From positions 71,672,001-71,736,000 of the forward strand of contig OZ076415.1 of the NCBI GenBank assembly GCA_964187785.1: a stretch of DNA of 64,000 nt. The letters run 5' to 3'. Shown here piece by piece: positions 14,182-58,728 of this stretch. The stretch is from Amphiscolops sp. MND2022. Its lineage: Eukaryota. The notes beneath the pieces were generated by a model. The model ran no database searches. It was given only the letters and a program-made list of their open reading frames with translations, and was not told the DNA's origin. Position 1 is the stretch's first letter, and every line of letters starts with the position of its first letter. The translations under genes were made by a program, and so were the position numbers.

Positions 14182-14590
14182 TTACAACCAGTCACAATTG
14201 AGTGCTTGAATCTTTGGACATCCATAGTCATCTAAATTTTCGACCTGCTTGCCAATTCCCGCGCTCAACATTGTGCATTTTTTCAATCCTTTTGCAAAGA
14301 ACTCGGCTCTGTACTTCTTGAGACTAGTCAAAACCTTTGTAACGTCATTGTAGTCCAGAGCACCGCTTCTCCAATCGATTTTGTGCAAAATATTTGTGCA
14401 CTAATGTGTCTGGAATGTTGGTTGAAAACTTGGTGGTTTGAAGGAATATCCAAATACTTGTCCGTCAATGAAAACGCCCACTTCTTTAATAACATTTTTG
14501 TCTGCAAGCTCAACATCCAGCACGATCAGAGACTTTGTTGCAATTTTACAGAAACAACTATGATTGGAGCTAACAATCTGGGTCACACTT
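14182..14590 (-). pseudogene. Small Maverick-associated ORF remnant with a DEDD-exonuclease-like first motif
   Basis: IVLDVELADKNVIKEVGVFIDG..GYSFKPP and W.SG.LDY...FAKG..KC......VENLDDYGCPKIQ, split by a frameshift. Confidence 0.45.
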
Positions 14591-14841
14591 GGTGTCGATC
14601 CAAACTTTGTAAGTCAAAATGTAAATCTCTCAGCAAGCAACTTGTTTGTACGACTGTGAAATTTCAAATGAACTGAAAATGACTACAAAAGAAGCTAGTA
14701 GTCATTCTTCCAAATAAAGTAATTTTTATATGACGAAGTCTTCCCAAAAAGGAGAAGCGTCAATCTACCGTATATGGAAGGGTCAATCTACCATATATGG
14801 AATCTGTAATCAGGGGCTAGCTAAGTGTTCTCTCAAGTACT

Positions 14842-16377
14842 TGTCGAAACCCAGAAGTTGCGTAGGAGCCGTGGCTTATCAATAAATAAAGCCAAACAAG
14901 GAGACAGCCACAACAAACTCTCGAAACTAGACTGTGGGCTAAAGGGGTAAAACTTCGAACCAAAAAACTAACATTTTGCTTTGGTTTTGTTAATTTACAA
15001 TTATATACAATTTTTGTAAATACAATATTCATATAATGTTTGCCTTTGATGAAGCCTTTCCTAATGTTGCTAATGAACATTAAAACTTCATTGAGAACCC
15101 TTATTTACACGTAAAATGAGTTGATCTAGACTTAGATGACGTGATTGGAAGCTTAAATACACTTGAAACTGTCCACATGTAGTAATTTACATCTTAGCAT
15201 GGTACCACTATGCGGTACCATGCGGATCAAGGAGTGACGTATACTCGTCACTATGCGGAATTGTCCTCTATATTATGTGGCAATATACGTTTCGAGGTGT
15301 GACGCATACTCGTCACTATACGTTTTCCACAGGGACACTATGCGGCATCCTGCGGAACGAGTAGTGACGTTTATTTGTCACTATGCGTTTCTAGCAAGAC
15401 CTTTTATATAACGTGGAAAGGTGAAACAGTGCTAATTGGAAACCATCTCAAATGGATTTTATACTGTATTCTGAGTGATTTCTAGGGTTTCTCTAGCCTT
15501 TTTAGGGTTTCCTAAATATATTTTGAACGTGCTGTAACTCAGTCGAGGCCATAATTAGTACGACGTTACCCTGACGTAATCCTATTTTTACTTTTTTCCA
15601 ATAATGACTACAGTAAAAAAGGAGTGTCATGGTATTTTTTGGAGCATTTTCATTTTAAAACAGAGAGAGAGCATCATTCAAAATCTGAACCGTCAGATAA
15701 GGCAGTTGTTCTCTTCATACACCTGTAAACCTTTTGGTAACTTTGTGATACTCTCAAGATAATTCAAATTCTTCCCCAAAAGCCAGAAACTACTTTTCAC
15801 TCGAAGCAAAATGGGAAACAGACGTAATAGACGTTCTGGAAGATTAAAAACTCCTTCCCCAGATAGAGAGGTAGAAGTAACACAAGTAGGAACACCCATT
15901 ACAAGTAATGTGACATTAACTAATGTTAATAGTGTAGTTCAAGGAAGTTTAGGTGAAAACAACTTAGAGAACCAATTTGCTGAACCCAGTCAGATAAGCA
16001 ACGAGATCCAAGTATGGACCCAAATCAAGGAACAAAAGAATAATGATAGGATTGAAAAGATGCGAGAAGAAATGGAAAATAAATTCGAAACAATCTTAAA
16101 GGAAATGAAATCCAACAAAAGTGTATCGACCGTAACAAACCCAAGGTCAGAAACCAACGGAATCAGGGACTCACAACCATCGGGATCCAAAACAAATGAG
16201 TCTATAGGAGTTCACGCATCTAATAACGGAAACTCATATTCTGAAACGACGATTATCCTCTTAGAGCTTCAGAAATGAAAGACTTAAGACATCCATTAAA
16301 ACCATTGTTTCACAATGAATGAGACGTAGATGTAACGCTACTTTCAAATGAAGAATCCGAAGAAGAGGATTATCACA
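14842..16377 (+). repeat. Gypsy 5' LTR (~1.54 kb)
   Basis: Begins TGTCGAAACCCAG, ends GATTATCACA; paralogous to 29247-30780. Confidence 0.93.
15200..15415 (+). promoter_or_regulatory. LTR motif cluster: GTGACG-N6-CGTCAC palindromes, TATGCGG repeats and a TATA-like box
   Basis: Palindromes at 15234-15251, 15299-15316 and 15364-15381; TATATAA near 15405; mirrored in the 3' LTR at ~29590-29800. Confidence 0.6.
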
Positions 16378-17370
16378 TGGTGACAGGAGCCAACCGACAA
16401 CTCCATAGACAAAGCTCTCAGAAACTAAATGACACAGTAGGATCCCACGCAGACCACAACTTGTCAAACTCGACAGTAAAACCGCTTGACTCAGTTAACC
16501 AAATCGCTTTAGCAATAGAAAAACTGGCGAACAAAATTCCTTCACAATCATTTTTTCATCTAAAAAACACATTAACATTCAATGAAAAAAAAACAAGAAA
16601 AAAGAGAAATTTGAATACTTTGATGGCTTCTTCCACACGACACTTCGATTGCAACCAAACCTAACAGAGGAAAAGAAAATTAACCATTTTCAGGCCCATC
16701 TCAGAAGTTTGGCACTCAAGACATTCAAGAACATACAACGAACCCCAAACACGACTTTGGAAGACATACTCAAAGTCTTGAGACGAAAATATGTGAAACT
16801 GGACTCCAGTGCAACAGCGAAGCACAGATTCAACAGACTTTCATTTGACCCGGAAAATCAAAAGCTCCCGGATTTCCTTAAAGAACTTCAAGAAGTGCTG
16901 AAAAAGCATTTGGGGAAAACGCCCACCAAATTATAGAAAACTTACTATATGCAAAAATGTCTCCCCACCTTAAAAAGTCAATTAATCAAGCCTACCTCGA
17001 GAATGGCGTAGAGGCAGACGAACATATCGTCAAAATCCAAATGACCGTTACTAAAAAGGAACAAAACACGGAAAAACCCAACAGAAAACAAAACGAATAA
17101 ACCAAAAAACAATCTCCAAAAAACAGTACCTGACAAAACACTCAAAAATGATCAATGCCGTTATTGCAGGGATGCCAACCACATGATGACTGAGTGCCCT
17201 ATATTAGCAAAACGGCGGAAACTCGAAGAAGACTAGGAGGCACCCAAATGCCCCAACTGCAAAACTCCGGGTCATGACGAAGAAGATTGCTATTTTGGTG
17301 CCAATATGGATAATCGCCCATCAAAATGGAACTTGACTGAAGCACAAAAATCGAACTCTACAAGCAAGCA
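15811..17370 (+). pseudogene. gag: Gypsy gag (frameshifted), starting inside the 5' LTR
   Basis: MGNRRNRRSG... start; two CCHC knuckles, CRYCRDANHMMTEC (~17155-17200) and CPNCKTPGHDEEDC (~17248-17290). Confidence 0.85.
16378..16391 (+). promoter_or_regulatory. Primer-binding site (tRNA-Leu-like)
   Basis: TGGTGACAGGAG directly after the LTR; one mismatch to the TGGTGTCAGGAG complement of eukaryotic tRNA-Leu 3' ends. Confidence 0.55.
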
Positions 17371-17849
17371 AAAAAACCAATCAGACCAAAAATGGAACGA
17401 CACCAACAATCCTCCTCGAAGGATTTAAACTAGAAACGCCACGCCTTTACACAAAATCACCACAAAAATCGAACTCAGTTGATGACTGGCAGCATCAGTT
17501 GAGCCCAAAACCCACAGAAACATCAGTCTGTGAAGCTGACTTAACAACAGAAAATTTACATTAGTTAACTCTGGAAACTCAACCTGAAGACTTATACGAA
17601 CTCTTACATGACGCACCAGACGACTACTTTCCTCAACAACCAAACAACCCCGAAACTGAATCAAACTCAGAAATCCAACACACAACAAAACACCACTTAA
17701 CAATAAAAACTTCTTGCAAGGATGAAAAACAACCTCTTTTAAATGAAGATCTCACTTAATACATACAACTTGAAAAGGAACGGAACTTGTCAAACCTTCC
17801 AATTTCAACCTCGCTAACATTTAAGCGAAAACCCCATATGTGTTACATT

Positions 17850-20800
17850 CGAATGGACTTCGAAAAACTCACACTTGATGGCCTTATTGATACCCGAGCC
17901 CTTACAAGTGCAATCGCCGAACAATAAAATCAAGTTGCTAGCAAATGAAGCAATTAAAGAAACTGGTCCCCCACCTAACTTCCAAAACATGGTGGCAAAT
18001 GGACAACTAGAAGTCCCCATTATTTGAATTCGAAGTGGCTGATTTCATGTTAAAGGAAAATTTCATCATTATGAAAACTCTACCAAACCCGCTAATCGGA
18101 TTTTGTTTCCTTCGCAGAAATAACGCAATTTTTGATGTCACCCAAGGCATCCTAACTTTCTCCTATCTTTCAATGCAGCTCAAAGCTGACACCCAAACAT
18201 CGATACGACAAGCAACACCATTGTTTGCTGAAAAAACCTATACTCTACAACCAAGTGAAACTCTCGCCATTGCAAGCAGAATGCCCCATCTGATGGACCA
18301 TAATGCCACTGGCATAGTCACCCCATCACAACGATATAAAAACCATGATAGCATTTTCATCACTGCATCACTCAGTACTGTTAACAACAATGCTATCGGG
18401 TATCAAATCATTATTTTTTCTGATTTACCATACACAATCACAATGGACACCCATTTAGCGGATTTCAAGATATTAACCCCAGAACAAATCAAACAAATAC
18501 AACCAGTAGACCCAGCATTGCTATCTTTCATGATACAACATGAGCAACATGAGGAAACAACAGAAGTCTACATAAACGAACTTCTCACAGTACCACAACA
18601 AAATTCCCAGCAGGTAACATACTGGTTCTCTACCCCTGAAGAACCAGGAGACCCTGCAACAAATACTCCAATTCAGCAACGTATTTACAAAGAACTACAA
18701 GAACTCGAGAAACTAAACCCAAATGAAATCGACACATCCAGAAACACATTTCTTTCAAACGTCGACTGGTTCGACACAACCATCAGCCCAGACGAACGAC
18801 AAGAAGTTGAAGAAGTTCTCGTTGACTTCCACAACATTTTTGCCAGACATCTTTCGATATAGGCATAAACCGTGAATTCAAAGTGAAACTAACACCGAAT
18901 GATGACAGACCTGCCTACAGTCAACGTCTGCCAACTCCCATCAGTCCTAAAGATGCTATCACAGTAGAACTTGCACTTCTACATAAGTACGGTATCATTA
19001 CAACTTTAACGTTCTCCAAATATGCAAGCTCAATTTTTTCGCAACGCAAACCCAACGGGCGCCTTAGACTTTTAGTAGATCCTAGGATGATTAACAACCT
19101 CATCACTGAAGATTACACTAACAACAATCACCCGGTAAGCACTTTATCAGATGCAGCCCAACATATGGCAGGGAAAAATTTTTCTGCAAATTGGATTGCT
19201 CACAAGCTTACCACTGCCTTCAGATGGCAGATTACCAAAACATTCAGATGCTCGCTTTCAATTTTGCCAGTAGAACATTTGCTTATCGTCGCCTTGCTCA
19301 AGGTCTCAGTAGATCACTTTCTGCATTTTCAAGCTTTATGAGAGAGTACCTAGATCAAGCAATCGAGGCCGACCAATGTGCCCAATATGTCGACGACATT
19401 GGCATAGCGGCAAATGACACAAAACAATTGTGTATAAAAATCAAAACTATCTTTGAATGCATTTGCACTAAAACTCTCCATGTCAAAATGTCATTTTTCA
19501 AAAACAAGTCGACCTTCTGGGACGCACAATAACACCGAACGGAGTCGCCCTTCAACCCGACAAAGTGAAAGATTTCCTCTCAAAACTTCCTTTTCCCAAG
19601 TCAAAAAAGGCGTTACAAAGGTATATTGGATTTTTAAACTATTACCAAAACTATATACCACGCCTTCCGGAACGGTTTTCCCCGTTCTTCAAACTTCCCA
19701 AAGAAACCTCTAAATTCTACGTACCAACAAACTTGGTAGAAGCTTCCACCAACCTCAACAAACTTCTAGAAAATTCCTGTCAGTTAGCCTTAAAACAACC
19801 ACTGAAAAACAAGCAACTATTAGTTATGTCCCATGCAAGCTGCACAGCAGCAGGATATGCTATCATGATCGAAGACGACCCAAACCAAAAACTTCAATCT
19901 AAACGAAAAACCTATGCACCCATAGCATTTGCATCAAAAGCTTTCAATCCAACACAGACAAAAATGTCAATTTATACAAAAGAATTCCTTTCCATCTACT
20001 TTACATTTGTTCAATTTGGACACCTCATGTGGGGTAGTACCTTTCCAGTGATCGTCTTCACAGACAATTGTTCTCTAACCGGCTTTTTCCAAACAAAAAT
20101 GATTCTCCAGCACTTTGGAATGCCTGCGATTATGTCTTACAATACAATTTTGTGATTGCCCACGTTGCTGGATCAATGAACACCGCTGCCGACTTCTTAT
20201 CTAGAACGGAAGTCGACCCAACCGAAAAACTGGAAATGGCCATCCGTAATGATATTCCCACAAAAGCAATTGAAGTGAACATTCAATCATCCGGCGTCGT
20301 CGAAGAAGAACCAATTTATGTTCTTCCAGATGAAGAAATTGACGAAAATCAATTATGGGAAGAAAAACAAAACATACGGAATCAAGCACAAACCGAAACA
20401 CACAATAAACCAGAAAACACTGTTACCGAGCTACAACAATTCCATAAGCCTACATCAGGACTGATCTCCTGCTCTTCAGGATATTTTAAAGATAATGCAA
20501 GAATCCACCTCGAGCAGAATAACGACATAGTCCTTAGAAACCTGCGAAAAAAATCGAAGGAAACCCATTTGATGAGAATTAGCTGGCATCAGATTATAGA
20601 TATCAGCACTACTTACAAAACATAACGCGAATAGAAGTAAAACAGGAAGTTCTCACACGCAAATACTACACACACATCGGAACCATATCTCTACCAAATC
20701 GTTCTACCAATCCAACTCCTAGAAGAATTTCTGCAGGCTTTGCATGGTGACAATTCAAACACCCCGGTATCACCAAGATGATTCAAGAAGCCCGTCAAAA

Positions 20801-22276
20801 GAATTACTACCCATGTATGGCTAAATACATCAAAAAATGGGTCAGTAACTGTCGAATTGGTTTTCAAACGAAACGCATTAACAACGATCTCCTCAGAACC
20901 GAAGTTCTCAATTGCCCAGAATGGGATCTTGGGCCAGAAGACATTCTGCTGATGAATATTTTGCCAAACCTTCCCCCAAGTGGAGGCTATGATAATATCA
21001 TCACGGCAATAGATGTCTTCTCAAGATACTTGTTTGCCTATCCTGTAACTCGTATTACTGCAACAGCGTTAACAACAGTCATCATGGATATACTATGCAA
21101 ACACACCTACCTTTCAACAACGATAATCACAGATTTAGGCACTCAATTCAATGGACAAGTAACTCACGAAATTGCAGCAGTGCTGGGAATTGAACTTAAA
21201 CACGCAACAATGAAACATGCCCAAACAATAGGACTCCTCGAGAGAACACATGCCTCAGTGAAAACACACCTAAAAGCTGCAACAGGTGAATTCAGGAATA
21301 ACTGGCATAAATACCTCCCTTTGGCAGTCCTTAATCATAACACAACATACCATGCATCACTTGGTTGCGAACCGTCACGAGTTTTCCAAGGTCGAATACC
21401 ACATAATATCCTAGATTACGAACTCGGATATAACCCAAACCCACGATACCAACCACAAGCAGATGTGGCGGAAGAAATTCGAAAACGCATGAAAACCCTT
21501 CTAGATCAAACAAAGAAGAACACCATGCAACCTTGTCTTAAATACAAAGCTTACTATGATCGCAAAGCGAAAGCAGCTCCGCTGGAAACAACGGACTGTT
21601 GCTACATTTTTAACCCAAAGGCTGACACACACGCGACAAAAATACCATTCCGAGAATTCACATGGTGTGGTCCATATAAAGTAGACAAAATTCTCCCTAA
21701 CAATAATTACATTGTCCGGAGACTTGGAACAAATCAAAACAAAACTACTACACCGGATTCGTCTGCGGAAATTCACCCCGCAAGCACCTTTAGCAGATAT
21801 TTTTGTTCGTGAAACTGATTGGCAGAAAGATGATCAGATGCCTATATCAAAAGATGATCTAAACGCCCAGTCATGGAACACAAATTTTGGGTCTAATCCG
21901 TTCGAAGATGGTCCTTCGGAATATTCACAAGACACAGAAGATGCTGAACATACTCCAATTCACATACCTGATGATAACCGCCCACCATCTCCAGGACCTT
22001 CAAAAAGTAGTGGGGGAGCCCAGTGGAACAGACCACTGAACCAGATCAAAATTATGAAAACCATGCAAATGAAATTCCACAACACCTCATTGTGGATGAT
22101 CAAAATACCCAAAAACTCAAAAAGAATCAAATAATTCAACAGTAGATGATATTCAAAAAACCCCAGAAAACTCCCGAAATACCCCATTGCAAAAAGAACC
22201 CATAAATACTCGTGGTGAAAAATTAAACTTACGTCCCAATCCCAACCCAAACTACTCTGACTCATACAGATACTAA
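17850..22276 (+). pseudogene. pol: Gypsy pol (protease, RT, RNase H, integrase), frameshifted
   Basis: LIDTRA protease motif (17883-17900, normally DTG); YVDD (19386-19397); RNase H region YAPIAFASK; integrase AIDVFSRY / IITDLGTQF / GLLERTH. Confidence 0.92.
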
Positions 22277-22487
22277 GAAAACAACTGCAGAGAAACTTTT
22301 TCTTCAATACTATATCCCTAACATGCACTACAACGTGCACTTTAAGTCTCCTCTTCTTTGTTTGCAGAATGACAGTAGCCCACCCAAATAAATACACGGT
22401 GTCTACAGAATACAAACATCTATATCAAAAGAAACAAATGTAGAATTTGAACAACAAACAGTTTTTCTTGCCTTTTGATGGTTTTGT

Positions 22488-25400
22488 TTAAACATTCTTT
22501 GATCTCCCTTCTCGCTCACTACTAGGACAACGACTGAGAGCAACATTGATCCGATTTAATGAAAGATTGAGCGATGGTGTACTGTTTACACTGCTGGTGC
22601 GGCTCACACTTGGCGTAGTGGTAGTAGAGGACACTACAGGTCTCTCCAGCCTTGGAACAGCCTTTCTATACTTCCCTTTTTTCCGTTCAGCGATGCCCGT
22701 CGAGAACTGTTTCCCTTTGAAAAAATCCAAATACAAAACTTCTTATCGAGCAATAAGTCAGGCCCTCGTCCCAACAGTCGGAAGGCACAGCTAATGGCTT
22801 CGATATCCCTGAACAAACTCGAGACATGCGGCACCGTCTGATATGAAATTTGAAGGCTGACAATACAAGACTGAAAAGAACTCTTATCCGATTCAAGAGC
22901 GGGTACCGGGACGTCGAATGTCGGAGGTACTTCCACTATTGGAGCTAAACATAAACACGAATGTCTGAATAACTGCAACAGTTCGTGTCGACATTGAAAC
23001 TCATAATGGGAAGCAACAAATTGTACCCAGTCGTCATACCCAGAGATTGGCCCAGCTCGCAACTTTGAAACGAATGACTGATACTGGCTGACTGCTCTCA
23101 CAATGTCGGTTGAGGAAAACAAACCAGTTGCCACAAAATGTGAGGATAATTTCCCGATAGCGCTGATATAAACTTCCCCGGGGCTCTCAAGTACTACAGG
23201 GGAATCGAAAACGGATAGCCCCCTAAGCAAGGCAGACTTGATGATATCATGGGTCATCAATTGTTTGCAGAAGGATTTACAGAAACTAATAGACTCTCCA
23301 ATAAATTTACTCGGACGAGGCAGCTTGCTGGATAGTACTAAACGATAGTAATCTTCATTGAGGACAAATTCATCGAGCCTCTTAAAAGGCAAACTGGCCA
23401 AATCCAAGTCCAATCCAAGATATGTGTCCCAATCTGAGACACTCCCCAGAATACCAACAGGCAAAATATTCTGCAACTGCGAATAAGTGAATACGGCGAA
23501 CTGACTGAACAATCTAAACCCGCCATCTAGCCGTTTTTGAGTCTCCGAGAAAGCCGAAATATCTGAAACATATCAAAGATTTGAAACAGTGTGATGAAAT
23601 ACAACAGCAACTACCATACTTATGGCATCTTTTTGATGAGTTCAGATTACGCTGTGAACAAACGCAGCTAATCAATTAACGAAACGTGATTTAATCCACA
23701 TTCTGCGTCATTATGCGGAATCCAAGCAAGCACACAGCATAATCCATTACTCTAGATATAAGGATTATGCGGCATTATGCGGTTCGAGGTGTGATGACTA
23801 TACGTCACTATGCGGAACTGCAGATTCAACTACATGGCATTATGCGGTTCAAGGTGTGACGACCACACGTCACACTGCGGAATTGCCGATTGAACTATAC
23901 GTTACTATGCAAAAATGAGTCTGAAGAAGAAAGCGTCTATATAAAAGGCGGAAACACGCTCTTCTATACTTCTAGAAAGACAAATAAAAGGGAAAAGGTG
24001 AATTACACTTATCGAATCATCCAAAAACCTGTCCAAGAGGGCACTATGGAGATTATTTATGCAAGGAAAACTCTAAAGAGGAAAATTACTGAGAAAGGAA
24101 AGGATTATCAAACTGATGTTGAAAACAAGAAATAACTAACAGTGGTCCAGTAGACATCTGATGATAAACAAACGAGCCAGATACGCAGTGTCCAGGCGAA
24201 AATACTCATCTAAGGTGTTGGGCTGAAAGAAGTTTCACAATTTAGAACGAACCAGTAAGCTTTTAAGGGTAGAGTTTAGTGTCTGATGAATACAAGGACA
24301 AATATAGTAACTTCTCTCATATGGAAACGATACTTGGCCAATCTGGCGACCTGATTCAAATGGTCCCGCACATGCTCCCCAATCACTGGACAGGATTTTG
24401 ATGAGGTTGGAAGCCTCGGGAAGGTTATACTCTAATCGGAGAACACACTAAAAGAAAAATAAAAATCTACTAGACAGGATGCAAATTAAAGTGAATAAGC
24501 TGCTGTAACTTGAACTACCCTGTGCAACAGGACCAGATTCTGCAGCCAATCTCGATCCAGGGCCGTTCTAAGCTTCATTACCAAAACATCCAGAATGGTT
24601 ACGAAATCATGTCTTTCAATGATCTGGACGGTGGGGGTGATTAAGCTGCGTTCAAACTGAGTTGGCCCATATGAATTCACGACTGAAGGAGGTCTGACTC
24701 CTGGCAATGAGGAATTTAAACAATCCTTGAGTTTGTCATCAATGCCAGTCAGGTGGGCATGATGTCAAATAAACTAAGGAATGAGACAATAAGAGAAAAT
24801 ATCTTCCGGGGAAGTAATATCCCTCAGGGAGCTCCGCCAATGCAAACGCGATGCAATACGTTTTCGGACCAAAAACAGAGGATGATGTATGTTGCTGTGG
24901 TCGTACGTTGCACCGCCAGTGAGTAGTACCCAGTGGAAGAGATGGTTTTAACACAATAATCCATCAATTCCCGGAACATGTAGACGAGAATCCCCTGAAA
25001 AAGGAAGAATTGTTGGAACCTAAGTTAACTATCCTACATCCGTGAAGGGAAGAGAAAGGTAAAGTTACTTTGAATCGAGAAGGAAAGATTACCACATTAC
25101 CTTAGTGTGAAATGATAAAAGATAAAGGAATACTTACGAAAAGTCGTTCTTGACTCCAATTTTGGACCGACAATTGGTCACGTGAAGTTAGCCGCACTAG
25201 TTCCTCATACATGCCTGTCAGGCTAGATACACTTCCCCCGTGTCGAAGACCAAACTCCAGAAAACTGATCTGCGAAAACAGTTTCTCAGTGTGGCTAGCA
25301 GCGGCGCTGAAATTTGGGACAGATTCTTGTCCAACGAACGGTCTGAGTGAGTCGAATTGTGGTGAAATTGGGTACATGTCCCTTGCCCTCTTTTTAGCGT

Positions 25401-26826
25401 CTTCCAACGTGACTCCTAGCATTTCTTTCTCGTCCTTATCGAAAAGGGGCATTCCTGGTACTTCCATGCGAATTCTATGTTCTTTAATCAAGTGGGAGTC
25501 ACTTCGATAATGGGAAATAAGTTCTAAACTCCCCCGCCTCGTGAGGGATAACTCAACCCGACATACCCGATGGTGATTTATCTCGATCTAACGGCCCAGT
25601 TGCTGAGAACTTTAAGACTGGGTGTCGTTTGAACATGCTCTCCGTCAGAGAATACTTGGGCCTCCGGCGTTTCCCTCGCACCATTGTGGAATTTTGTCCT
25701 GTTTCCTACAGGGCAGTGTCAGTGCCAATGCTGGCTACCAAATCATCTAGGCTGGACGTAGTTATCAGTGTTGTTGGGATGACGTCGTCTACCACAGTAA
25801 GCAACATGGGTTGGTGAAAATCAATCTCTTCTCCAGAAACGAAAAATTGTGGGATCCGTCCCAGAACGCTTGGCAATACGAGGACCTCCTGCCGTGTTAT
25901 GCTGAAATTGGGGAGCATTGTCTCAGACAGGGTGATCTCATTAGGGGGCGCCCGGTTAGTAGCTGCTTCGCCAATACTCGCGTAGCTTGTGCCATTTTTA
26001 TGTATGGAGGTTGAGGAAATCAGTGGATTTGACACAACATTCTGTTGAACGAATTGACCAAATAGAGGAGACGGGATCTGAGAAGTTCCAGGAGTGTTTG
26101 GATCCACGAAAAATCTTGAGTTAAGCCACTAAGTGGGGGTCCATGGATTTTGAACAAGAGTCGACCTTAGGGTCAGCGCTCTTTGATGTTGTTAGCAAAG
26201 TCTCCTCGCAGTGAGGCGTTTTTTCGTGACTTCCTGAAGGGATTTCAATCGTGGGTGATGTCACCGGTGTTTCAGCTATGGGCTCTTCGTCAATCTGGAG
26301 GGCGCGAACATCAGGTGACTCTGTTGCAATGGGTTGCCCTAGGGTCCGTGGTGTAGCCACTTGTAACGAAGTATAAGTTTTATCTGGTGAGCTGGTTGGA
26401 GTCTCTTGAGCAGATACTTGTTCGACTGAAACAAATGTTCTACCTGAACGTTTAGTAACAAAATAAATCATACAAGCGGAAACCGTTTCCTTACTTCTTG
26501 AAACCGGACGCGAACACAGGAAGTGAGAAAGAACAGAATCGGAAGTCGCTTAGAAGTCTGAGACGGAAACGTTCCAAAAAATTCCGAAAATGGCTTGAGA
26601 ATTACTGTACCTAGTTTCAAATTTGCGGACCTGGCCAGTCTTGCAAAAACACCAAATTCAAAATAAAACAATACAATATGAAATCAAAATAAAACAAAAT
26701 GGACTTACAGGTGGGTTGAAGCTCGGGAGTATCCTCAACGTCCCGAAAATTGTCGCGATGGAGGGGATTGTAATTCTTACGGGATCTTCGTTTCCCAGGA
26801 GAAGATGTTCCAAGATTTGGATCCAT
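22488..26826 (-). pseudogene. Antisense multi-exon cargo gene of the Gypsy element (zinc finger plus hAT-like region), disrupted
   Basis: GT-AG introns joining frames in phase: 26494-26444 (PVSR|SRTFVSVE), 25137-24995 (QERLF|GILVYMF), 24140-23563 (LLDH|YISAFSE); tentative introns 24518-24448 and 26708-~26640; several stops and frameshifts. Confidence 0.75.
23700..23950 (+). promoter_or_regulatory. Internal copy of the LTR motif cluster, within an intron of the antisense gene
   Basis: GTGATG-N6-CGTCAC 23791-23808, GTGACG-N6-CGTCAC 23856-23873, several TATGCGG, TATATAAAAGG at ~23938. Confidence 0.55.
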
Positions 26827-27239
26827 AGTAAAATGGAGGCGAAAATGAAGTTGATATATTTTATGGGATTAATTCAAACAAATGTAAAACGAAACAAAAA
26901 ACGTACAAAGCAATAAAAGAAGTGAGTAAATAGGAGACGAAACTAGAGGGAAGACAGTTATGATGAAGAATCGAATCTGCAGCGACAAAAATACTTGACT
27001 GAACTCGAAATTTACTGGAATTGTACTATAAAAACGATAAATCGATAAGGCGTGGCGTAGTGTAGAAAGGCAAAAAGCAAATGAAGCAAGTTTGCGCAAA
27101 TGTGCAAAACGAATACTGGAATCTGATCGGCTAATTAAATGTCAATCACGTCTGCCAGTGTGATTGATTGACTCGTTATAGCTTTTGGATGAAAGAATAC
27201 AAATGGAAATATCACTGCAAATCAGATTAGAACGATTTG

Positions 27240-27410
27240 GTATGCGAAAGTATGCAGCAGTGTGCGGAGTTGCAGTAACGATTATGCGGCAGTATGCGGA
27301 TCGACTAAAGACGAGTATGCGGCATTATGGGGAATTGCAGTAAAGACTATGCGGCAGTATGCGGATCAAGCAGTGACGCATACTCGGCATCCTGCGGTTT
27401 TCGCTGTATG
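27240..27410 (+). promoter_or_regulatory. Third copy of the TATGCGG / GTGACG motif cluster, upstream of the antisense gene start
   Basis: About 8 TATGCG(G)-like motifs; GGATCAAGCAGTGACGCATACTCGGCATCCTGCGG matches LTR sequence. Confidence 0.55.
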
Positions 27411-27449
27411 CTTTCCAAGAGATGGATTAATACTATCAAAAATCAGAAT

Positions 27450-28480
27450 TGGACAAATAAAATAGTATTACGTAATGTGATGAAGAATCTACTCACTCCC
27501 AATGACAAACACACATGATACTATTGACGTTTTATTACACAAAACTAATGCTCTTTTGAACTTAATATGTTGGTAGAAGTTCTGCCTGGCGATAACTTCG
27601 AGAGGTTTCGGAATGAGTTTACCAGTAAAACTGGAACTTCTTTGCTGAACTGTCAGGCCTGTTGGATTTTTCAAATGCAGGACTGGGATTATTGCATAGT
27701 TCTCACGAGAAACAAATTTTTACTTAGAAGTGATATGAGATTAAAATAAGATATGTTCACGAGCTTTGCTTCATTCTCCTTTTTAAATCCAATCATATAA
27801 ATCAAAATAAAATCAATTCTGAACTCTTTTGATGAATATTTCATGAAAATATTTCTTAGACAGTCACTTTGATGTTAGGATAGATTCATTTATATATCAT
27901 TTGAATACTGGGGAAACGCTGTAAGCCTTGATGATAAGTGATGTTCTGTTGAAGTGTTAAATGAAACACCTTTTATGGAAATTGTTTACAACGTGTTGTG
28001 GATGAGTCCCTGATAACTAAGTCTCTGCAAAACCTTTATAAGGAAGCGAGGGAAGCTGATCATGACATGCAATTTTTCCTCGGGTTTTCTCCAAAGTCTG
28101 AAGGAGAAAGAAGGTCCATCACCATATGGTCTTTAATCCAACTGATAATCAGTAACCCTCCTGCTACAACTCACATCGCAAAAAACTAGCTTTAAACATC
28201 TTCTTCAATAACTAAAATCAAAACAAGAAAGATCAACAACAAGACAATGCAGTTCGGATTCGACGAGATACTTGAATTCATCACCCTTTGTCATTGATGT
28301 GTCGAGTGAATCGGGGGAAAAGTTTACAGTAGAACCCGGGAACGTCCGATCTCTTGAGATTCCGCGTGGTGGGACCCGACTCAGATGTAATGTCTGCCTT
28401 TGTCGGCGCTGCAGCAGCAACCCTTCTCCCTTCTTCTTCTGTTCCATTCCAGACGGAGGAAGTTATTGACACCATTGGGT
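27450..28480 (-). pseudogene. Second, heavily decayed antisense cargo gene
   Basis: Intron-like GTATCT...TTTTAG segment 28271-28212; long protein-like frames with many stops; terminal segment PLEVIARQNFYQHIKFKRALVLCNKTSIVSCVFVIGSE. Confidence 0.35.
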
Positions 28481-28653
28481 CACAAATCGAAAGACAGCTG
28501 ATAGAATTGATTGTCGAGCATCAGAGTCACAGGTGAAGCTCCCCAACATCATTCATTGACACTGAATTTAAGGAGTCTCCTGAATCGCCTGATGACCAGG
28601 AAATGGAGGTCGGCCTTTCATTAAACAGCTATGGTTGACCCTCCGCATCAATC

Positions 28654-29235
28654 TTGCCAACCCCAAGAGGAAGAGGCTGGGGCAAAGGTCTGGTCCCGCA
28701 TCCGATACCGACATATCCACCGGGGTTTACTGCAGAATCTAGCAACTTCAATGTCATAGGGGAGAATATGCATGAGGTAAGAGCAAATAACTTCAATAAT
28801 GGGTACAGCAGTACACAAATTGGACTTCCAATCACCAACCCGATCATGCCATCGGCCAACATTAATAACCCAGCACCGATGATGATACATCTCCCACCGG
28901 TTATCCCCGGCTCCGCAGCAGTGCAAAATGGTCACCAAATGCAGCCAGTGCCACAGCCACTGTTACAGCAAATGTTTCCAATGCAGACTACCCAAAGCAC
29001 CAATGTGCTTTTGTTGCCCTCAAGTGAAAGATACCTATACAGACTGACACCCACTGTGATGCCAAACATCGCGGGATATTGCAATTGGTCTGGCCGTACC
29101 TACGACCAAATCAGCTTGGAGACACTGGGCGAATATCTTCTGGCAACAGCGTTTGATGGTGAGACAGCAAGGGATCGAAATGTGCGGTCTAGGACTTTCA
29201 TCGATGGGTTTGAGGCTGCCCTGTTTGCCTTTTAA
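28654..29235 (+). CDS. Uninterrupted 193-aa ORF (Pro/Gln/Asn-rich N-terminal part, ordered-looking C-terminal part) ending 11 bp before the 3' LTR
   Basis: Open frame in the ORF track; starts on a non-ATG codon and may extend upstream to 28354 across two stops. Confidence 0.55.
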   Translation: MPTPRGRGWGKGLVPHPIPTYPPGFTAESSNFNVIGENMHEVRANNFNNGYSSTQIGLPITNPIMPSANINNPAPMMIHLPPVIPGSAAVQNGHQMQPVPQPLLQQMFPMQTTQSTNVLLLPSSERYLYRLTPTVMPNIAGYCNWSGRTYDQISLETLGEYLLATAFDGETARDRNVRSRTFIDGFEAALFAF

Positions 29236-29246
29236 GAATGCATAAC

Positions 29247-30780
29247 TGTCGCAACCCAGAAGTTGCGTGGAAGCCGTGGCGCATCAACAAATAAAGCCAA
29301 ACAAGAAGACAGCCACAACAAACTCTCGAAACTAGACTGTGGGCTAAAACTTCAAACCAATAAACTAACAATTTGCTTTGGTTTCGTTAATTTTGTAAGT
29401 CATGTAAATACAATATTTATATAATGTTTGCCTTTGATGTAACCTTTCCTAATGTTGCTAATGAACATTAAAATTTCATTGAAAACCCTTATTTACACGT
29501 ACAATGAGTTGATCTAGTCTTAGATGACGTAATTGGAAGCTTAACTACATTTGAGATTGTCCACATGTAGTATTTCACATCTTAGCATGGTACCACTATG
29601 CGGTACCATGCGGATCGAGGATTGACGTATACTCGTCACTATGCGGAATTGTCCTCTATATTATGCGGCATTATACGTTTCGAGGTGTGACGCATACTCG
29701 TCACTATACGTTTTCCACAGAGACACTATGCGGCATCCTGCGGAATGAGTAGTGACGTATATTCGTCACTATGCGTTCCTGGCAAGACCTTTTATATAAC
29801 GTGGAAAGGTGAAACAGTGCTATTTGGAAACCATCCCAAATGCATTTTATACTGTACACTGAGTCTTTTCCAGGGTTCCTCTAGTCTTTTCCTTAAGTAT
29901 ATTTTGAACGTGATGTAATTCAGTCGATGCTATAAATAGTATGCCGTTACCCTGACGTAATCCTATTTTTACCTTTTTCCAATAATGACTACAGTAAAAA
30001 AAGAGTGTCATGGTATTTTTTGTAGCATTTTCATTTTAAAACTAAGAGAGAGCATCATTCAAAATCTGAACCGTCAGATAGTGCAGTTGTTCTCTTCATA
30101 CATCTGTAAACTTTTTGGTAACTTTGTGATACTCTCAGATCTTGTTGATTTGAATATACAAGTTAATTCAAATTCTTCCCCAAAAGACAGAAACTATTTG
30201 TCACTCAAAGCAAAATGGGAAACAGACGTACTAGACGTTCTAGAAGATTGCAAACTCCTTCCCCAGATAAAGAGGTAGAAATAACACAAGCAGGAACACC
30301 CATTACAGGTATTGAGACTTTAACTAATGTTAAAACTGTAGTTCAAGGAAGTTTAGGTGAAAACAACTTAGAGAACCAATTTACTGAACCCAGTCAGATA
30401 AGCAACGAGATCCAAGTATGGGCCCAAATCATGGAACAAAAGAATATTGATAGGATTGAAAAGATGAGAGAAGAAATGGAAAACAAACTCGAAACAATTT
30501 TAAAGGAAATAAAAACCAACAAAATGTATCGACCGTAACAAACCCAAGATCTGAACCCAACGAAATCAGGGAGTCACAACCATCGGGATCCAAAACAAAC
30601 AAGTCTATAGGAGTTCACGCATCTAATACCGAAAACTCAGACTCTGAAAACGACGATTATCCTCTTAGAGCTTCAAAAACGAACGACTAAGACATCCTGC
30701 AAAACCATTGTTTCACAATGAATCAGACGTAGATGTAACTATACTTTCAAATGAAGAATCCGAAGAAGAGGATTATCACA
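29247..30780 (+). repeat. Gypsy 3' LTR, including a copy of the gag N-terminal ORF (30215-30538)
   Basis: TGTCGCAACCCAG...GATTATCACA; about 90% identical to the 5' LTR by eye. Confidence 0.93.
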
Positions 30781-31249
30781 GTACTCGTGGAAAATTTCTC
30801 ATTTTGTTGAAAGATCTGTCATTCGGAAGATCAAAAGCGTACAACTGTATTCGAATAACGTCGAAAGACGTTACCTTATATGGGAAAACTGCTCACGTAG
30901 AGCGACTGAATTTCATCCGAGGTTCATTGTTTTTTTCACTTTTCGTACATCCTTATTTTTGTTGCATTTCATTTTTACCCACGTTAGGTAACCATCAAAA
31001 CATTCATAAAGCACTGTCAGAGTAGATGTTACACGGAGTCACGTGTTGCTGGTCGCAAGTTCCGAACTTCACCAGGGAAGCAATACTTTCATTGGAACAC
31101 ATTAATATTGTTTTCACACACTAGTTCGGTTTTTTACATTCCCTTTGAGGTCTTGCGCAGATTTTTTGTGCATCGAAAAATGATTGCACATAAAAGTATT
31201 TGTTTTTATATATGACGGTATTTATACTATTTGCTTTCAAATATGACAT

Positions 31250-31695
31250 GGCGTAAAAATTTTATCTTTATATCTGACGTGTTGTAAAAATTTCACTTTA
31301 AAATCTGACAAGACGAAAAAATTTCACTTTAAAATCTGACCAGAGGAAAATATTTTACTTTAAAATCTGACAAGACGAAAAAGTTTTACTTCAAAATCTG
31401 GCAAGACGAAAAACTTTTACTTCAAAATCTGACAAGACGTAAAAATTTTTGCTTCAAAACCTGTCCTTTTTTAAAGTATCGCAAGTGCAAAATTTGTCGT
31501 TTTTACGGAGTAAAATGGGTAAAAACCTGTCTTTTCAAAAATAAAAACGCCGTAGAAATCTGTCTTTTCAATTTTTTCAACCCGTGTAAAATCTGACGCG
31601 TTGTGAAAATATTGCAAGAAAATCTGACACGTCGTAAAATTTTCACTTTGAAATCTGACACGCTGTAAAAACATTACTTTAAAATCTGACACAAT
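31250..31695 (+). repeat. ~31-bp tandem repeats with an AAAATCTGAC core in the palindrome spacer (blocks 31250-31465 and 31585-31695)
   Basis: About 7 plus 4 contiguous copies of TTTAAAATCTGAC(A)AGACG-like units. Confidence 0.85.
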
Positions 31696-32469
31696 AAATA
31701 TATTTACTTGCAAAAGTGGGCATTTTAAGCTTCGCCAATGATTAGCATTTGTTCCGACTGCCATGTTCTACTCTATGTTAAATATCATTTATAAAAACAA
31801 ATACTTTTATGTGCAATCAATTTTCATTGCACAAAATTCTGCGCAAGACCTCAAAGGGAATGTAAAAATCCGAACTAGTGTGTGAAAGCAATATTAATGT
31901 GTTCCAATGAAAGTATTGCTTCCGTGGTGATGTTCGGAATTTGCGACGAGCAATACGTGACTCAGTGTAATAACTACTCTGACAGTGCTTTATGAATGTT
32001 TTTATGGTTACCTAATATGCGTAAAACTGAAATGCAACAAAGATAAGGAGGAACGAAAATTGAAAAACAATGAACCTAGGATGAAATTCAGTCGCTCTAG
32101 GTGAGCAGTTCTCCCATCTAAGGTAACGTCTTTTGAAGTTATTTCAATACAGTAGTACGCATTTGGTCATCCGAATGACTGATCTCTCAACAAAAGGAGA
32201 AATTTTCCATGAGTACTTGAGAGAACACTTAGCTAGCCCGTGATTACAGTTTCCATATAAGGTAGATTGACCCTTCCATATACGGTAGATTGACGATTCT
32301 CCTTTTTGGGAAGACTTCGTAATACAAAGATTACCTTATTTGGACGAATGACTACTAGCTTCTTTTGTAGTCTTTTTCAGTTCATTTGAAATTTCACAGT
32401 CGTACAAACAAGTTTCTTGCTGAGAGATTTACATTTTGTCTTACAAAGTTTGGATCGACACCAAGTGTG

Positions 32470-32861
32470 ACCCAGATTGTTAGCTCCAATCAAAGTTGTC
32501 TCTGTAAAACTGCAACAAGGTCTCTGATTGTGCTGGATGTTGAGCTTGCAGACAAAAATGTTTTTAAAGAAGTGGGCGTTTTCATTGACGGACAAGTATT
32601 TGGATATTCCTTCAAACCACCAACAAGTTTTCAACCAACATTCCAGACACATTGGTGCACAAAATTGATTGGAGAAGCGGTGCTCTGGACTACAATGACG
32701 TTACAAAGGTTTTCACTAGTCTCAAGAAGTACAGAACCGAGTTCCTTGCAAAAGGATTGGAAAAATGCACAATGTTGAGCGCGGGAATTGGCAAGCCGGT
32801 CGAAAATTTAGATGACTATGGATGTCCAAAGATTCAAGAACTCAATTGTGACTGGTTGTAA
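32470..32861 (+). pseudogene. Mirror copy of the exonuclease-like Maverick-associated remnant
   Basis: ORFs 32386-32778 and 32652-32861 carry the same motifs. Confidence 0.45.
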
Positions 32862-34146
32862 TCCAGCTATCCCTACATACATCGAACAACACTTCACTGC
32901 GCTGAAAAAAAGGCAAAAACATTTGGTACATGGAATGTGCAACAATTCAATTGGTGATTTGTTGTCTATTGTTTTCTTTTATAAAAAAATTAAATTATTT
33001 CAACTTAAACACAATTTTTAGCTAATCCAGGGGATGAGTGCTTTGTGAGCAAGATCTGTTTCATTGCATAGTCATTGATTGATCAAGTACAATGAGTTTG
33101 ATACAAAAATCACGAATGTTACACTACATAGGAAAAGCTTATTTATATTGAATGTTAGATGTACAATTTGTTGGTCTATAAATATTCACTCTCTTGTTTG
33201 TGTAACGTAAAATTAATCTGTTTTGTTAGTCAATTGATAAATGTGAAACTTTTAAGCAATTAAATGCATTAATACAAAGACAAGTAGAATTAGTTTTTAT
33301 TGACTTTTATTGATTCAACCCACAATGGATCAGTGTGAGAAATCTTGTGATTATGATACGCGTTTCTATTAACAGTATCATTAATACTCGTGCTACTACC
33401 AATTTACAATGATATTGCTACGTTAGGGGTGACATTTGAACATTTCTTTTTTTGGGACTTCTGAGAAATTACTTTGTTGGAAATTGATTTTTGAAGAGAA
33501 AAGACAAATATGTAGTTATCTGTCAGTTGAAAAAATGATAATTTATTGTTTTGGATTGTGATGCCGCGTCTCACTAAGGGATATTATTCACCAAGAGTAG
33601 CTTTCCCAGACTATGTGACGTCTTTCCCAAGGAATGCATTCCGCTTGGGTTATTTTCTCAGACACCGCAACGTTCTACTGAGAGGATTTGTTCCACTTGA
33701 GAGGCCTTCCTGGACATACTCGTCGTTACTTGAGAGGTACGTAATCTACTTGAGCAATCAACTTTCAAAAAGAAGAAATATGATTGACAGGTACTTTAGA
33801 GGGAACGCAGATGCTATTGCGTAATCAATTTTTCCTTTTAAAGTAAGTTGATACTACTTTGTATGTTTCAGTGACTCATACTTTCCATAAAAAAGGCAGA
33901 TTGAAGGTTTTGACTGAACTTTCCGCCATTTTTTCATTATTCTGTTGACCGTTTTACTGACTAGTTTCCTCTGTAGGGATACGGATTTGTTACAATGCGT
34001 GTTCTTGGTTGAAATGACCGAGCTTTACTTGAAAAAACAGGAACACAAACAGAAAGGAATCATTCTGAACAACAAAGATGTTCTGTTCAAACTGTTTACT
34101 GTCGCAATTGTTTCAATTTCTCAACAATTATCCAAGCTGACTTAAT

Positions 34147-35100
34147 TTACAGTTTTGTGAAGCAGCAAAATGTGAAGCTTAAAATAACAAATGTAAAGTG
34201 TGTCACATAGAAACTCTTGGTTTTTTTTCTACTAGCACAACCTGAAAACAGGAAGCATTCAACAAAAAAGATAGGAACTCGGTTGCACTGTCCACGTGCA
34301 GATCCATTTCGCAACAATCCCATCGGCGCGGACACCAAAAATGTTCCATGTGCGTATCAGCAATTTCTGGTTGATTGAAAACTGGAGCAAGGAGATCACG
34401 TTACTTTCAACTTCGCATTAGATGACCTACTTGGTTACTTGAAATACGCAGCAAAGTCAATGTAGCTTTCAGTTTTGCAATGGAAAATGTTGACGACTCG
34501 CGCTGTCGATTTTTTATCCTCAAGGAAAAAATTCAATGTTGGAAAAATACAAACTGTTGATTAAAGGGAACCACTTGAAACATTCTAAAGCAAAGATTGC
34601 TTCAAAAAATGTCATAACAGCTTGTCCCCGTGGAATGGTCAACACAAAATGGCAGTTTTGGAAGTTGACAAATGTAACAGTTTTTGCAATTTTACTGAAG
34701 AATATTCCAATGGGTTGTAGAAATGCACTTTTACCGGACCATCTTTTGAAGGAACGATTTAATAATTGTCTCACTTGTAATCAAAAACCTTGTGACATTT
34801 TAACTTTCTTCAAATCCTTGGCGATACAACTGCACAGAGATAAGAGGTCAGAAGAGAGAACTTGTAACGTTTTCAAGCTCTACGTGAAAGAGAAAGGAAA
34901 AGTTGAGTCCGCAACATTTCAAGGTGCTTGCTTGAACGATATACAGGCAGCGGGAGAAACTCTTGGGATAAATATTTCTTTATACGATGTTGACACTGTG
35001 GACGGATAGTTTGTGGGTGAGCTTGTCAGATGGAGTATGCACATGTTTTCCAGTACTGTTAGGTTGTTACGCTATACAACAGTCACATTTACTTTGTAGC
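34147..35100 (+). pseudogene. Mirror copy of the Maverick-like pPolB N-terminal remnant
   Basis: ORF 34536-35009 is the inverted paralogue of 12043-12705. Confidence 0.55.
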
Positions 35101-37485
35101 AAACATTCAAGCGATCTTCAATGCATTCCGTTGCTCGACTTGTGAGTGTTACTTTTTTTAACCAATCAAACTTGAACGACATTCAACTTCCTTTTATGGA
35201 ATGTAATCAAAGGAATGCAAGATGAAAGGTCAACCAGCTGTCAGCTGTCACGCTACATTTCTTTTATGACATGATAATTGCTCCATTTGAGAGGTTTTCC
35301 CAGACGTATCGGTGTCTTTTCGAGGGAATTTGTTCCACTTGAGCAATTTCTCTCAGACAATGTAGCGTCCCTTGAGAAAAACTTGTCACACTTGAGCAAA
35401 TATCGTTCAGAGAGATTAAAAGTAATTGACAGGTACTTGAGAGGGAAATCTAACGCTAGTGCGAACTTACTTTTTCCTTTAATGGTAGGTAAGCTATTCT
35501 TTTTATGGTTCTGTGACGCATACCTTCCGTATTTGGTCTAACAACTTTGTAACCTGAAATTTCAACCATTTTTAAGTCATTCGAAATATTACAGTTCTAC
35601 AAAACAGCTGCTAGCTTTCAGATTAAAATTTTTACAACTTTCTGTTACAATTCTATTTGCTGGCTTTCTTGTTTCACGTTTCTGTTACAAATCTAGTTGC
35701 TTGCTTTTAGAGTTACAACTTTGTTACAATACGCTTGTTTTCGGATAAACACGTGTTACACTCGCTGCTAATAAAGCCTGTTCTTGATCGAAATCAAAAA
35801 GCTGCCTGCGACAATTGTGGAGCTTGTGTATCGAAGCAAAACATTTCAAAACGAAATGTTCCGTTGGGAGATTATTTTGCACTCAATGTCCCATACCGGT
35901 TGAACCCTTTCTTGTTATATGGACATTTTGAGCTGTTTCCGACAGTTGAATCACATACTTGAGCTATTAATTTTCACAGAGATAATTTGATTGACAGATA
36001 CTTTAGAGGCAACGCTGACTCTAGTACGTAGTTACTTTTTCCTTTTATGGTAGGTTTACGCTTCCTTTCACGGTAAAGTGACTCATACCTTCCATGAAAG
36101 GTTGGTTGAAATTTTGACTGAACGTTACGTCATTTTTTCATTATTCTATTATCAGTATAACAATCAAGTTGCTCCTGTATAGATACATATTTGTTGTGAT
36201 ATGTGCCATTTTTTATTTCTGATAGGCATCAGTTAATATGTTGTGCAACCTATGTTTTCAGCAAATGCAATTGCATATTTTTGAATTGAGTCTTCAAGAA
36301 TTGAGTTTTAAATCTATAATAGTAACTTTGTACACTTTATTCCAGAGGTTATGATTGAAAGCGTCCTAATTCGTTGTACATACGAAATAATCAACCAATT
36401 GCAGCAGCAGCTGAGGGAAATTGGAATTTCAGATTCAACTTTTGTGTTCAAACAACACGTTTTCACACTACGCCTTACAATCGTTCCAGGCAGCAGACTT
36501 GTCAAGACCAAATTACGTCTACCACATTTTTACACAGTTTACAAAAATTGCAAGTTGTACCGCTTGCCCCTTATTATCCGTGAAGCTACCAGACTAATTG
36601 CTCACAACCACTAGGTTTCCACCCCAGGAGACAAAGAAAATACACTGATTGTTTATCACCACCCCAGTCCCTTACGGACCTTGTTACTTGCACTGCAGTA
36701 TCGTATTTGTCATCGCAAAGCATACAGTTTACTAGTTTGTTAGACACGAATCAGGAAACTGGAGTTGTCAGTCACCCTTTAATCCTCAGTTGACGCATCC
36801 TAAAACACTTTTGTTGGAGCTTGGGTTTTGTATGTTATTACTAAAGAAAGACTTGTTCAATAATTTCTAATTGCATTCTTTGTACGGTTTTTTGGGGTCA
36901 GTGACTGACTGACAAGAAATGAAAAGTGGTCAACAGATCGTGCATCAAAAATGTATGGATGGGAGCAGTCAAATGATTGAATGTTATCAATGTGCAACTG
37001 TACAAGAATCAATACTGCGAACACACGCTTCTTTCTTCCTGCAGTATGCTGAAATGAGAACTATTACTACATTTCCGTCAATTATTTTGGTGTTTGTATG
37101 TTAAAGAAATGCTTGAAACGGACACCAACTCACTATATACTGCCTAAACCGAGAGAGAATTGTGTGATTGTACATGATCTCATATGAAAGAGAGAGTGGA
37201 TATTCCTGTGAATATTTTCATTGTAAGGACGAGTATATGACAAATGCCTACTGTCTACTTCTCTCCGTACTTGCTGAACGAAATAAAAGAAGCATAACAA
37301 GCTCGAACCTAGTCTCTGCAAGGCAGAATTTCGTTGCACGGAATTGTTTTGTGGGTGGTGCAAGACGTGCTTTTATGATTTTTATTCATTCATTTCAATT
37401 TGTACCGCAACTAATTGAACAAGAGATAAATTGAAAGCAGCGGTGAGTGTCCAATTTCCAAATATGGAAGAATTTTGCAAGAGAA

Positions 37486-58684: not shown

Positions 58685-58728
58685 TTTATTTTCTTTTGAA
58701 AACCAAATAACGACCGAATCCCGGACAG

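Follow-up and report, generated by a model that had tools for sequence, protein, structure and literature searches.

An antisense gene in a Gypsy element

The DNA analysed here is a 64,000-nucleotide stretch of the genome of Amphiscolops sp. MND2022 (contig OZ076415.1, positions 71,672,001 to 71,736,000 of the forward strand), which I hereafter call the window. Comparison of the window with itself delimits an old, broken Gypsy retrotransposon of 15.9 kb (14842-30780), the ends of which are two direct repeats of 1.5 kb (14842-16377 and 29247-30780, 89.3% identical) that constitute its long terminal repeats (LTRs). On the minus strand of this element, between the end of pol (~22276) and the 3' LTR, lies the subject of this study, hereafter the antisense gene, which comprises six exons and five introns of phases 1, 0, 0, 0 and 1. 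A preliminary description, made from the letters of the window, had placed an intron-bearing antisense segment at this very position, and the present analysis confirms it in part, with corrections to the exon map. The LTR pair with TG...CA termini, the short target duplication, the primer-binding site and the order reverse transcriptase (RT), RNase H, integrase in pol identify the host as a Ty3/Gypsy element, with the following parts.

14837-14841 (left) and 30781-30785 (right), no strand: 5-bp target-site duplication, GTACT, the same letters on both flanks
14842-16377, plus strand: 5' LTR, 1,536 bp, TG...CA, including the start of gag
15811-17430, plus strand: gag, broken, with its ATG inside the LTR and an approximate end; recognized from open reading frame (ORF) pieces and a weak PNMA match
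16378-16395, plus strand: primer-binding site, TGG..., with a start common to all five families described below
17430-22276, plus strand: pol, broken, with an approximate start; RT, RNase H and integrase, from RVT_1, RT_RNaseH, Integrase_H2C2 and rve matches
29247-30780, plus strand: 3' LTR, paired with the 5' LTR; CCGCAT cluster at 29598-29733

Pfam detected no protease domain in the broken window copy. In sister copies gag encodes ~560 aa and pol is a single ORF of ~1,640 aa. Because the gag start codon (15811) is located inside the LTR, the primer-binding site (16378) falls within gag, an arrangement that the sister copies share. Downstream of the antisense stop, at window ~22385-22395, is a conserved TGTATTTATT, which on the plus strand provides an AATAAA just after pol. 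This AATAAA, present in 13 of 18 rows as scored by eye, might terminate a shorter mRNA for gag and pol, which would avoid overlap with the antisense transcript.

Exons, introns and reading frame in sister copies

Sister copies were sought in the organism's own genome (1.07 Gb) with the longest antisense ORF (22637-23572) as query. The gene is not confined to one copy: the search gave 127 scored matches among 6,255 candidates, most of them with open frames of 370-410 aa. Twenty loci spanning 60-86% identity were taken, 20 kb each; they were chosen by exon-6 score, which favours intact copies and means that the sample does not show how common the gene is among the elements as a whole. All 20 are elements of ~16 kb with the same order of parts: LTR, gag, pol, antisense exons, a sense ORF of ~350 aa, LTR. 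One (L036), which has lost most of the antisense gene, was excluded, so that the alignment holds 20 rows, 19 sister copies and the window. The exon-intron map of the window read from this alignment is the following, all on the minus strand.

26709-26826, minus strand: exon 1, ATG at 26826, kept in 20/20 rows
26426-26708, minus strand: intron 1, phase 1, containing conserved non-coding blocks (splice-site conservation)
25138-26425, minus strand: exon 2, with a variable acidic, Ser/Thr region, the basic motif GKRRRP and a C2H2 finger; broken near 25570
24995-25137, minus strand: intron 2, phase 0 (splice-site conservation)
24519-24994, minus strand: exon 3, 486 nt in intact copies, a likely RNase-H-like core (sister-copy alignment)
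24448-24518, minus strand: intron 3, phase 0, missing from one sister family (splice-site conservation)
24312-24447, minus strand: exon 4, 135 nt in intact copies, with a frame change in the window copy (sister-copy alignment)
24223-24311, minus strand: intron 4, phase 0; donor 20/20, acceptor 19/20
24141-24222, minus strand: exon 5, 82 nt, a length kept in 19/20 rows
23563-24140, minus strand: intron 5, phase 1, both ends 20/20; CCGCAT cluster at 23713-23847
22443-23562, minus strand: exon 6, an all-helical domain and a Ser/Lys-rich tail, 366-374 aa in intact copies

All the splice dinucleotides listed in the preliminary description are present in the window where it put them, and three of its introns stand: 25137-24995 (donor 19/20, acceptor 18/20), 24518-24448 (19/20 and 20/20) and 24140-23563. 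A fourth, 26494-26444, falls, its donor being retained in 6/20 rows and its acceptor in 2/20. The intron opening at 26708 was correct in its donor (20/20) and not in its acceptor: 26640 is conserved in 7/20 rows and in the window leads into a stop at 26617, so that it was rejected in favour of the conserved acceptor at 26426 (19/20). The earlier list was also incomplete, having overlooked 24311-24223, an intron that is required because the frame is otherwise lost. Retention at the accepted sites, 18-20 of 20, is to be compared with a mean of 27% for 136 other GT or AG dinucleotides within the window introns, 8 of which are found in at least 17 of the 19 copies. Altogether, GT-AG borders are seen at 94 of 100 introns. 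Most rows agree on the lengths of exons 3, 4 and 5 (486, 135 and 82 nt); those of the introns are free to vary.

In 10 of the 19 sister copies every exon is open and in phase and every intron is GT-AG, giving proteins of 1,075-1,096 aa; the intact spliced ORF that the preliminary description anticipated, at about 1000 aa, thus exists elsewhere in the genome. The window copy is disrupted, as had been noticed: it has several stops and no fewer than five frame changes, one of them inside the zinc finger (near 26130, 25570, 24745, 24378 and 22690); exon 6 contains the frame change near 22690 and a stop at 22490.

Intron 1 (26426-26708) is the least diverged intron. Its conserved blocks include several plus-strand GGAA-core motifs, which resemble ETS sites. 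RNA structure prediction (alifold) scored it above column shuffles, a weak null, and no structure is claimed.

Purifying selection and recent retrotransposition

Selection was assessed on 36 pairs of 9 intact copies, L037 being omitted as nearly identical to L038. The proportion of non-synonymous differences (pN) is 0.18 for exon 2 from the finger onward and 0.22, 0.20, 0.06 and 0.22 for exons 3, 4, 5 and 6, against a saturated proportion of synonymous differences (pS) of 0.77-0.86. The ratio of the corresponding rates (dN/dS), taken from the unsaturated pairs, of which there are only 1-14 for each part, is 0.03-0.12, and ~0.3 for the variable N-terminus; for comparison, it is 0.06 for gag, 0.015 for RT and 0.036 for integrase. 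Introns differ at 38-65% of aligned columns. The antisense gene is under strong purifying selection.

Introns that lie in the sense of the genomic RNA are normally lost at reverse transcription, and antisense introns survive. LTR pairs of the sister copies are 97-100% identical, 5-bp target duplications are present and all introns are retained; over the 41 rows eventually collected, LTR pairs were found in 33, and the 5-bp duplication is readable in 25 of these 33. The near-identical LTRs and the duplications indicate that the introns survive recent rounds of retrotransposition. Young copies keep all introns of the antisense gene, and gag, pol and the sense ORF have none, as would be predicted if an intron-bearing gene were propagated in antisense orientation; the proposal of the preliminary description is supported. 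Antisense introns and 3'-end signals are copied intact because they are unread when the opposite-strand genomic RNA is processed. One element (L098) contains a tandem duplication of the block that comprises exons 2 and 3 of the antisense gene.

Five Gypsy families share the gene

A profile search of 1.84 billion representatives returned 281 relatives at E<=0.001. Among the matches listed, the relatives are all unnamed, single-exon pieces. No intron-less version was found among 282 database ORFs, no longer, full-length relative of exon 6 among 3,765 candidates (weak evidence), and scans of metagenome contigs gave no confirmed match. A distant relative used as query revealed other families in the organism's own genome, from which 20 further loci were taken. 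In sixteen of these an RT lies on the opposite strand at an equal distance. Another is an element that has suffered an internal deletion, and the remaining three belong to a different carrier, described below.

The RT tree and the exon-6 tree (the latter a midpoint-rooted FastTree tree with long branches) recover one and the same set of five family clades, between which identity is 71-88% in RT and 21-42% in exon 6. In every one of the five families introns 2, 4 and 5 interrupt the protein at identical points; intron 3 does so in four, its donor having been read by eye in L095, L102 and the copies in the second carrier. The family without intron 3 is collinear with the others, the next conserved Trp lying 23 residues on, as in the predicted spliced form; it provides natural support for the predicted junction, though it is not a transcript.

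The same site and the shared intron positions in five families argue for inheritance of the gene together with the element and against a nested insertion. An insertion with terminal inverted repeats (TIRs) of its own, which would have undone the preliminary description, received no support either. No shared inverted repeat flanks the gene in 13 elements, four of which show single, unrelated AT-rich matches, and a nested DNA transposon with its own ends is thereby rejected; since no ends were found, an 8-bp duplication around the gene was not searched for separately.

A second carrier, a CACTA-type DNA transposon

Two of the three remaining loci (L083 and L087) belong to a DNA transposon that carries the whole antisense gene.

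G000:C10, ~26528123-26563875: CACTA-type element; copies L163, L103, L083, L164 and L178; also on C1, C9 and C281

This ~36-kb element has TIRs of ~45 bp, a target duplication of 2 bp in three of four complete copies and of 3 bp in the other, and a Tnp2-type transposase (DUF1258 above cut-off, Transposase_21 and DUF4218 weak), a combination that identifies the L083 family as CACTA/CMC. It also holds two weak SET-like ORFs. The four complete copies are ~98% identical. Among themselves the CACTA copies show few changes in the gene, mostly non-synonymous, as expected after insertion; its splice sites are canonical. A remnant of Gypsy pol lies beside the 3' end of the CACTA-borne gene (62% over 78 aa, E 9e-23), and CACTA exon 6 is nested in one Gypsy family in the tree, from which it follows that transfer went from Gypsy to CACTA. 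The third locus, L088, combines a related CACTA backbone with a differently diverged exon 6, which suggests a second capture by CACTA. That the gene is kept whole in a DNA transposon fits a function not tied to reverse transcription. The CACTA element further contains several 88-bp tandem arrays, the unit of which is similar to the 3' end of Gypsy pol.

A probable hAT-transposase origin of the antisense protein

From its N-terminus the protein consists of a variable acidic region of ~290 aa, the basic motif GKRRRP, which resembles a nuclear localization signal (NLS), a C2H2 finger, the exon-3 region, which is patterned alpha/beta, the products of two short exons, and the all-helical exon-6 region. 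The finger, C-x2-C-x16-H-x5-H, is present in 35 of 41 loci, with residues that are constant within families and different between them; Pfam zf-BED does not match it. This order of domains had, by eye and before any fold search, seemed to me that of an hAT transposase.

The structural model of exon 6 is all-helical (predicted local distance difference test, pLDDT, 84.9; predicted template modelling score, pTM, 0.69). In a fold search against 48,161 chains, the Hermes transposase came first for both exon-6 models, with Z 5.2 over 85 residues for one model, and with Z 5.0, a root-mean-square deviation of 6.4 and 176 collinear residues over 367-609 in the longest alignment listed. In a language-model atlas, a neighbour of exon 6 is a Dimer_Tnp_hAT cluster (0.90), and the neighbours of the finger and exon 3, submitted as a natural ORF that reads through intron 2, are the DUF4371, FAM200-ZBED5_RNase-like and ZBED1 clusters (0.85-0.91). 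A sequence search of solved structures returned weak chance matches only, and a DUF4371 search of the organism's own genome returned nothing, its controls being equally silent. I conclude that the antisense protein probably derives from an hAT transposase and that exon 3 is likely an RNase-H-like core.

True hATs retain the columns D-E, D-G, CxxH, TR and P-x6-ER. In the antisense protein no acidic column is conserved in exon 3 in 18 rows, and no ER motif follows the conserved LxCLC of exon 6 where the fold alignment would place it. With positions matched to hATs partly by eye, the DDE triad, RW and CxxH motifs of hATs were not recovered, and the catalytic triad is not conserved, whatever the origin of the protein.

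A head-to-head sense ORF and clusters of CCGCAT

28247-29290, plus strand: sense accessory ORF (ORF-S), broken, with an approximate end; acidic, with a SUMO-interacting-motif-like (SIM-like) sequence near the N-terminus and a CxxC near the C-terminus
26827-28246, no strand: non-coding region between the divergent ORFs; CCGCAT cluster at 27284-27364, TATA-like box at 28034
15210-15345, no strand: CCGCAT cluster in the 5' LTR, from a motif search

ORF-S starts head to head with the antisense gene, 1.4 kb away, downstream of a TATA-like box, and the intervening region (26827-28246) is likely to be a two-way promoter. ORF-S is under selection (dN/dS ~0.16 on 10 pairs). It has no Pfam match and no env-like features were seen in it. 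A motif V/I-I-x-I-S-S-acidic, which resembles a SIM, is present in 28 of 41 loci and in all five families.

In 18 elements of the window's family the density of CCGCAT is 4.3 per kb in the LTR, 8.3 in intron 5 and 9.6 in the region upstream of the antisense gene, against 0.28 elsewhere. Eleven elements of the other families contain 1-5 CCGCAT in total, and the L102 family offers a hint of another motif, CATGTA.

Possible function of the antisense protein

The reading I favour, at a probability of about one half, is that the antisense product is a dead hAT-type transposase that binds the repeated motifs of its own element and either switches the element on or shields it from silencing. An internal two-way promoter would give rise to two mRNAs, one antisense and spliced, the other sense and encoding ORF-S; as the genomic RNA is the other strand, introns and end signals are copied unprocessed. 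The antisense protein would enter the nucleus, where finger and transposase scaffold would bind the clustered motifs without cutting, and this binding would raise or protect transcription of the element. ORF-S might engage SUMO-dependent silencing. For the window's family the targets would be the CCGCAT clusters, and that the product binds these and acts as an activator or anti-silencer has, in my estimate, an even chance.

Several results weigh against this proposal. The CCGCAT clusters occur in one of five families, an equally clear motif did not emerge in three others, and a host factor may be what the clusters serve. In the window's family the identities of exon 6 and RT are uncorrelated (Spearman 0.11, 190 pairs), a sign that close copies exchange sequence. 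As for descent from hAT, the Hermes match at Z 5.0 is tied with unrelated helical proteins, and the atlas scores near 0.9 are leads, with only 133-156 of 256 features in common. Pfam, run on window pieces, sister exons and distant homologues, gave no match for the antisense protein; nor did a hidden Markov model (HMM) search against the genome's own hATs, four profile-profile (hhalign) tests against hAT sets, which were negative, or Foldseek at E<=0.001. The hAT origin is therefore not demonstrated by sequence.

A more ambitious version of the dead-transposase proposal is that this Gypsy lineage domesticated a DNA transposase as a portable two-gene anti-silencing cassette, later borrowed by CACTA. 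The dead hAT would read family-specific motif arrays, and its head-to-head, SUMO-binding partner would counter host heterochromatin; by lying antisense the cassette would keep its introns through the radiation of the lineage, with a sequence that outpaces RT. I hold this version tentatively, and it is more probably wrong than right.

An unlikely alternative is that the protein acts on a replication intermediate or at integration, either by binding element RNA or cDNA ends or by serving as a chromatin tether for the integration complex. That transposase scaffolds bind the ends of elements is well established, and U1-like C2H2 fingers can bind RNA; the NLS-like motif and the presence of CCGCAT in the LTR would also be accounted for. 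Most copies of CCGCAT, however, are internal, in intron 5 and the upstream region, and not at the ends, the gene diverges far faster than RT, and a DNA transposon lacking both RT and integrase has kept it.

Somewhat less likely still is a self-limiting repressor that damps its own element or the host's hATs, in the manner of HBZ or of a truncated transposase. A dead transposase could poison active ones, and HBZ and APH-2/3/4, nuclear proteins encoded by spliced antisense genes, reduce the activity of the LTR (PMC10186651). Yet the antisense protein has no similarity to the hATs sampled from its own genome, the families are young and very numerous, and rapid, family-specific change would better fit a conflict with the host.

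The hAT likeness could also be fortuitous, the gene being a captured host or lineage-specific zinc-finger gene. The uniform failure of sequence and profile tests to recover hAT speaks for this reading, which I nevertheless consider improbable: two separate parts of the protein point to hAT families in the correct N-to-C order, although from one source of evidence, the fold search agrees, and no stand-alone host copy was seen among 40 fetched loci. Finally, a hAT transposon that inserted into an ancestral element and now decays as a passive passenger would explain the broken window copy and, being a plausible nested insertion, is possible as the origin of the gene, but it is very improbable for the present, being contradicted by purifying selection, open exons in 10/19 copies, retention through five families at 21-42% identity and the lack of TIRs.

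Relation to known systems

Plant Gypsy elements and Boty are already known to have antisense ORFs (aORFs) at the corresponding site, after pol and before the 3' LTR (PMC7264820, PMC11963269, PMC8365987); their origins are mostly unknown, with no similarity to other transposable elements (PMC7264820). The antisense gene has the aORF-3R layout. Plant aORF-3R (Grande gene23, RIRE2, Retand TRP28) and fungal Boty brtn resemble it in position and orientation (PMC7264820, PMC11963269) and also in presence in most copies, conservation and a proposed nuclear or regulatory role. It differs from aORF-3R in its size (~1,080 aa), its five conserved introns and its likely hAT origin; the word 'intron' does not occur in PMC11963269. 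The antisense protein has no TRP28, SMC or PMD match, and Pfam gave none to PF04195 or PF10536.

The principle of a spliced antisense gene in an LTR element is not new, as HTLV-1 hbz illustrates. Both hbz and the aph genes of HTLV-2/3/4 are spliced antisense protein genes in LTR elements (PMC10186651) and share with the antisense gene spliced antisense coding inside an element that is reverse transcribed. They encode small proteins from the 3' LTR, whereas the present gene is large and multi-exon, with its ATG 2.4 kb inside and head to head with another ORF. Searches of an open-access library listed no LTR element with an antisense gene that derives from a transposase.

With hAT transposases (DUF4371, FAM200-ZBED5 and ZBED1 types; Hermes, PDB 8edg) the protein shares an N-terminal C2H2 finger, a likely RNase-H-like core and a helical C-terminal part; it differs in having no conserved DDE, no TIRs, a variable N-terminus of ~290 aa, a C-terminal extension of ~165 aa and a class I carrier. 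VANC of VANDAL and TnpA of Spm, the latter of which arose from a transposase (10.64898/2026.08.24.746577), are likewise accessory genes with fast, family-specific evolution. As with CCGCAT in the window's family, their motif clusters lie in intron, intergenic and terminal non-coding DNA, and in the element that encodes it VANC21 binds all three (PMC5735166). They belong, however, to plant DNA transposons and have tested activity, and no homology to them was seen. Planarian Burro is, as here, a large Gypsy element with extra coding capacity (PMC6431247); it has extra domains in a giant polyprotein, and accessory ORFs, and 'antisense' is absent from that review.

The antisense gene bears on the mostly open question of aORF origin and function (PMC7264820) by pointing to where such a gene likely came from, namely a class II transposase that a class I element recruited. 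Its candidate target motifs, partner protein and many natural variants make the idea of a regulator directly testable. It also provides a five-intron gene carried through RNA-based copying down to ~25% identity with intron positions unchanged. If the anti-silencing role were true, an LTR retrotransposon would have a system like VANC or TnpA, from which sequence-specific tools for chromatin could be drawn.

Other features of the window

The Gypsy element is flanked by two long inverted blocks, 11158-14849 and 32204-35984, that are 93-94% identical, and a fold-back with a 31-bp tandem array (30780-32217) starts right at its 3' end. A unit of ~1.4 kb is present in four tandem copies at 37486-43186. 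Farther along, 49944-51149 (plus strand) is a single-ORF, ammonium-transporter-like stretch of high GC (PF00909), and 51089-59904 (minus strand) is a BEL/Pao-like element with DUF1759 and direct repeats 7.66 kb apart.

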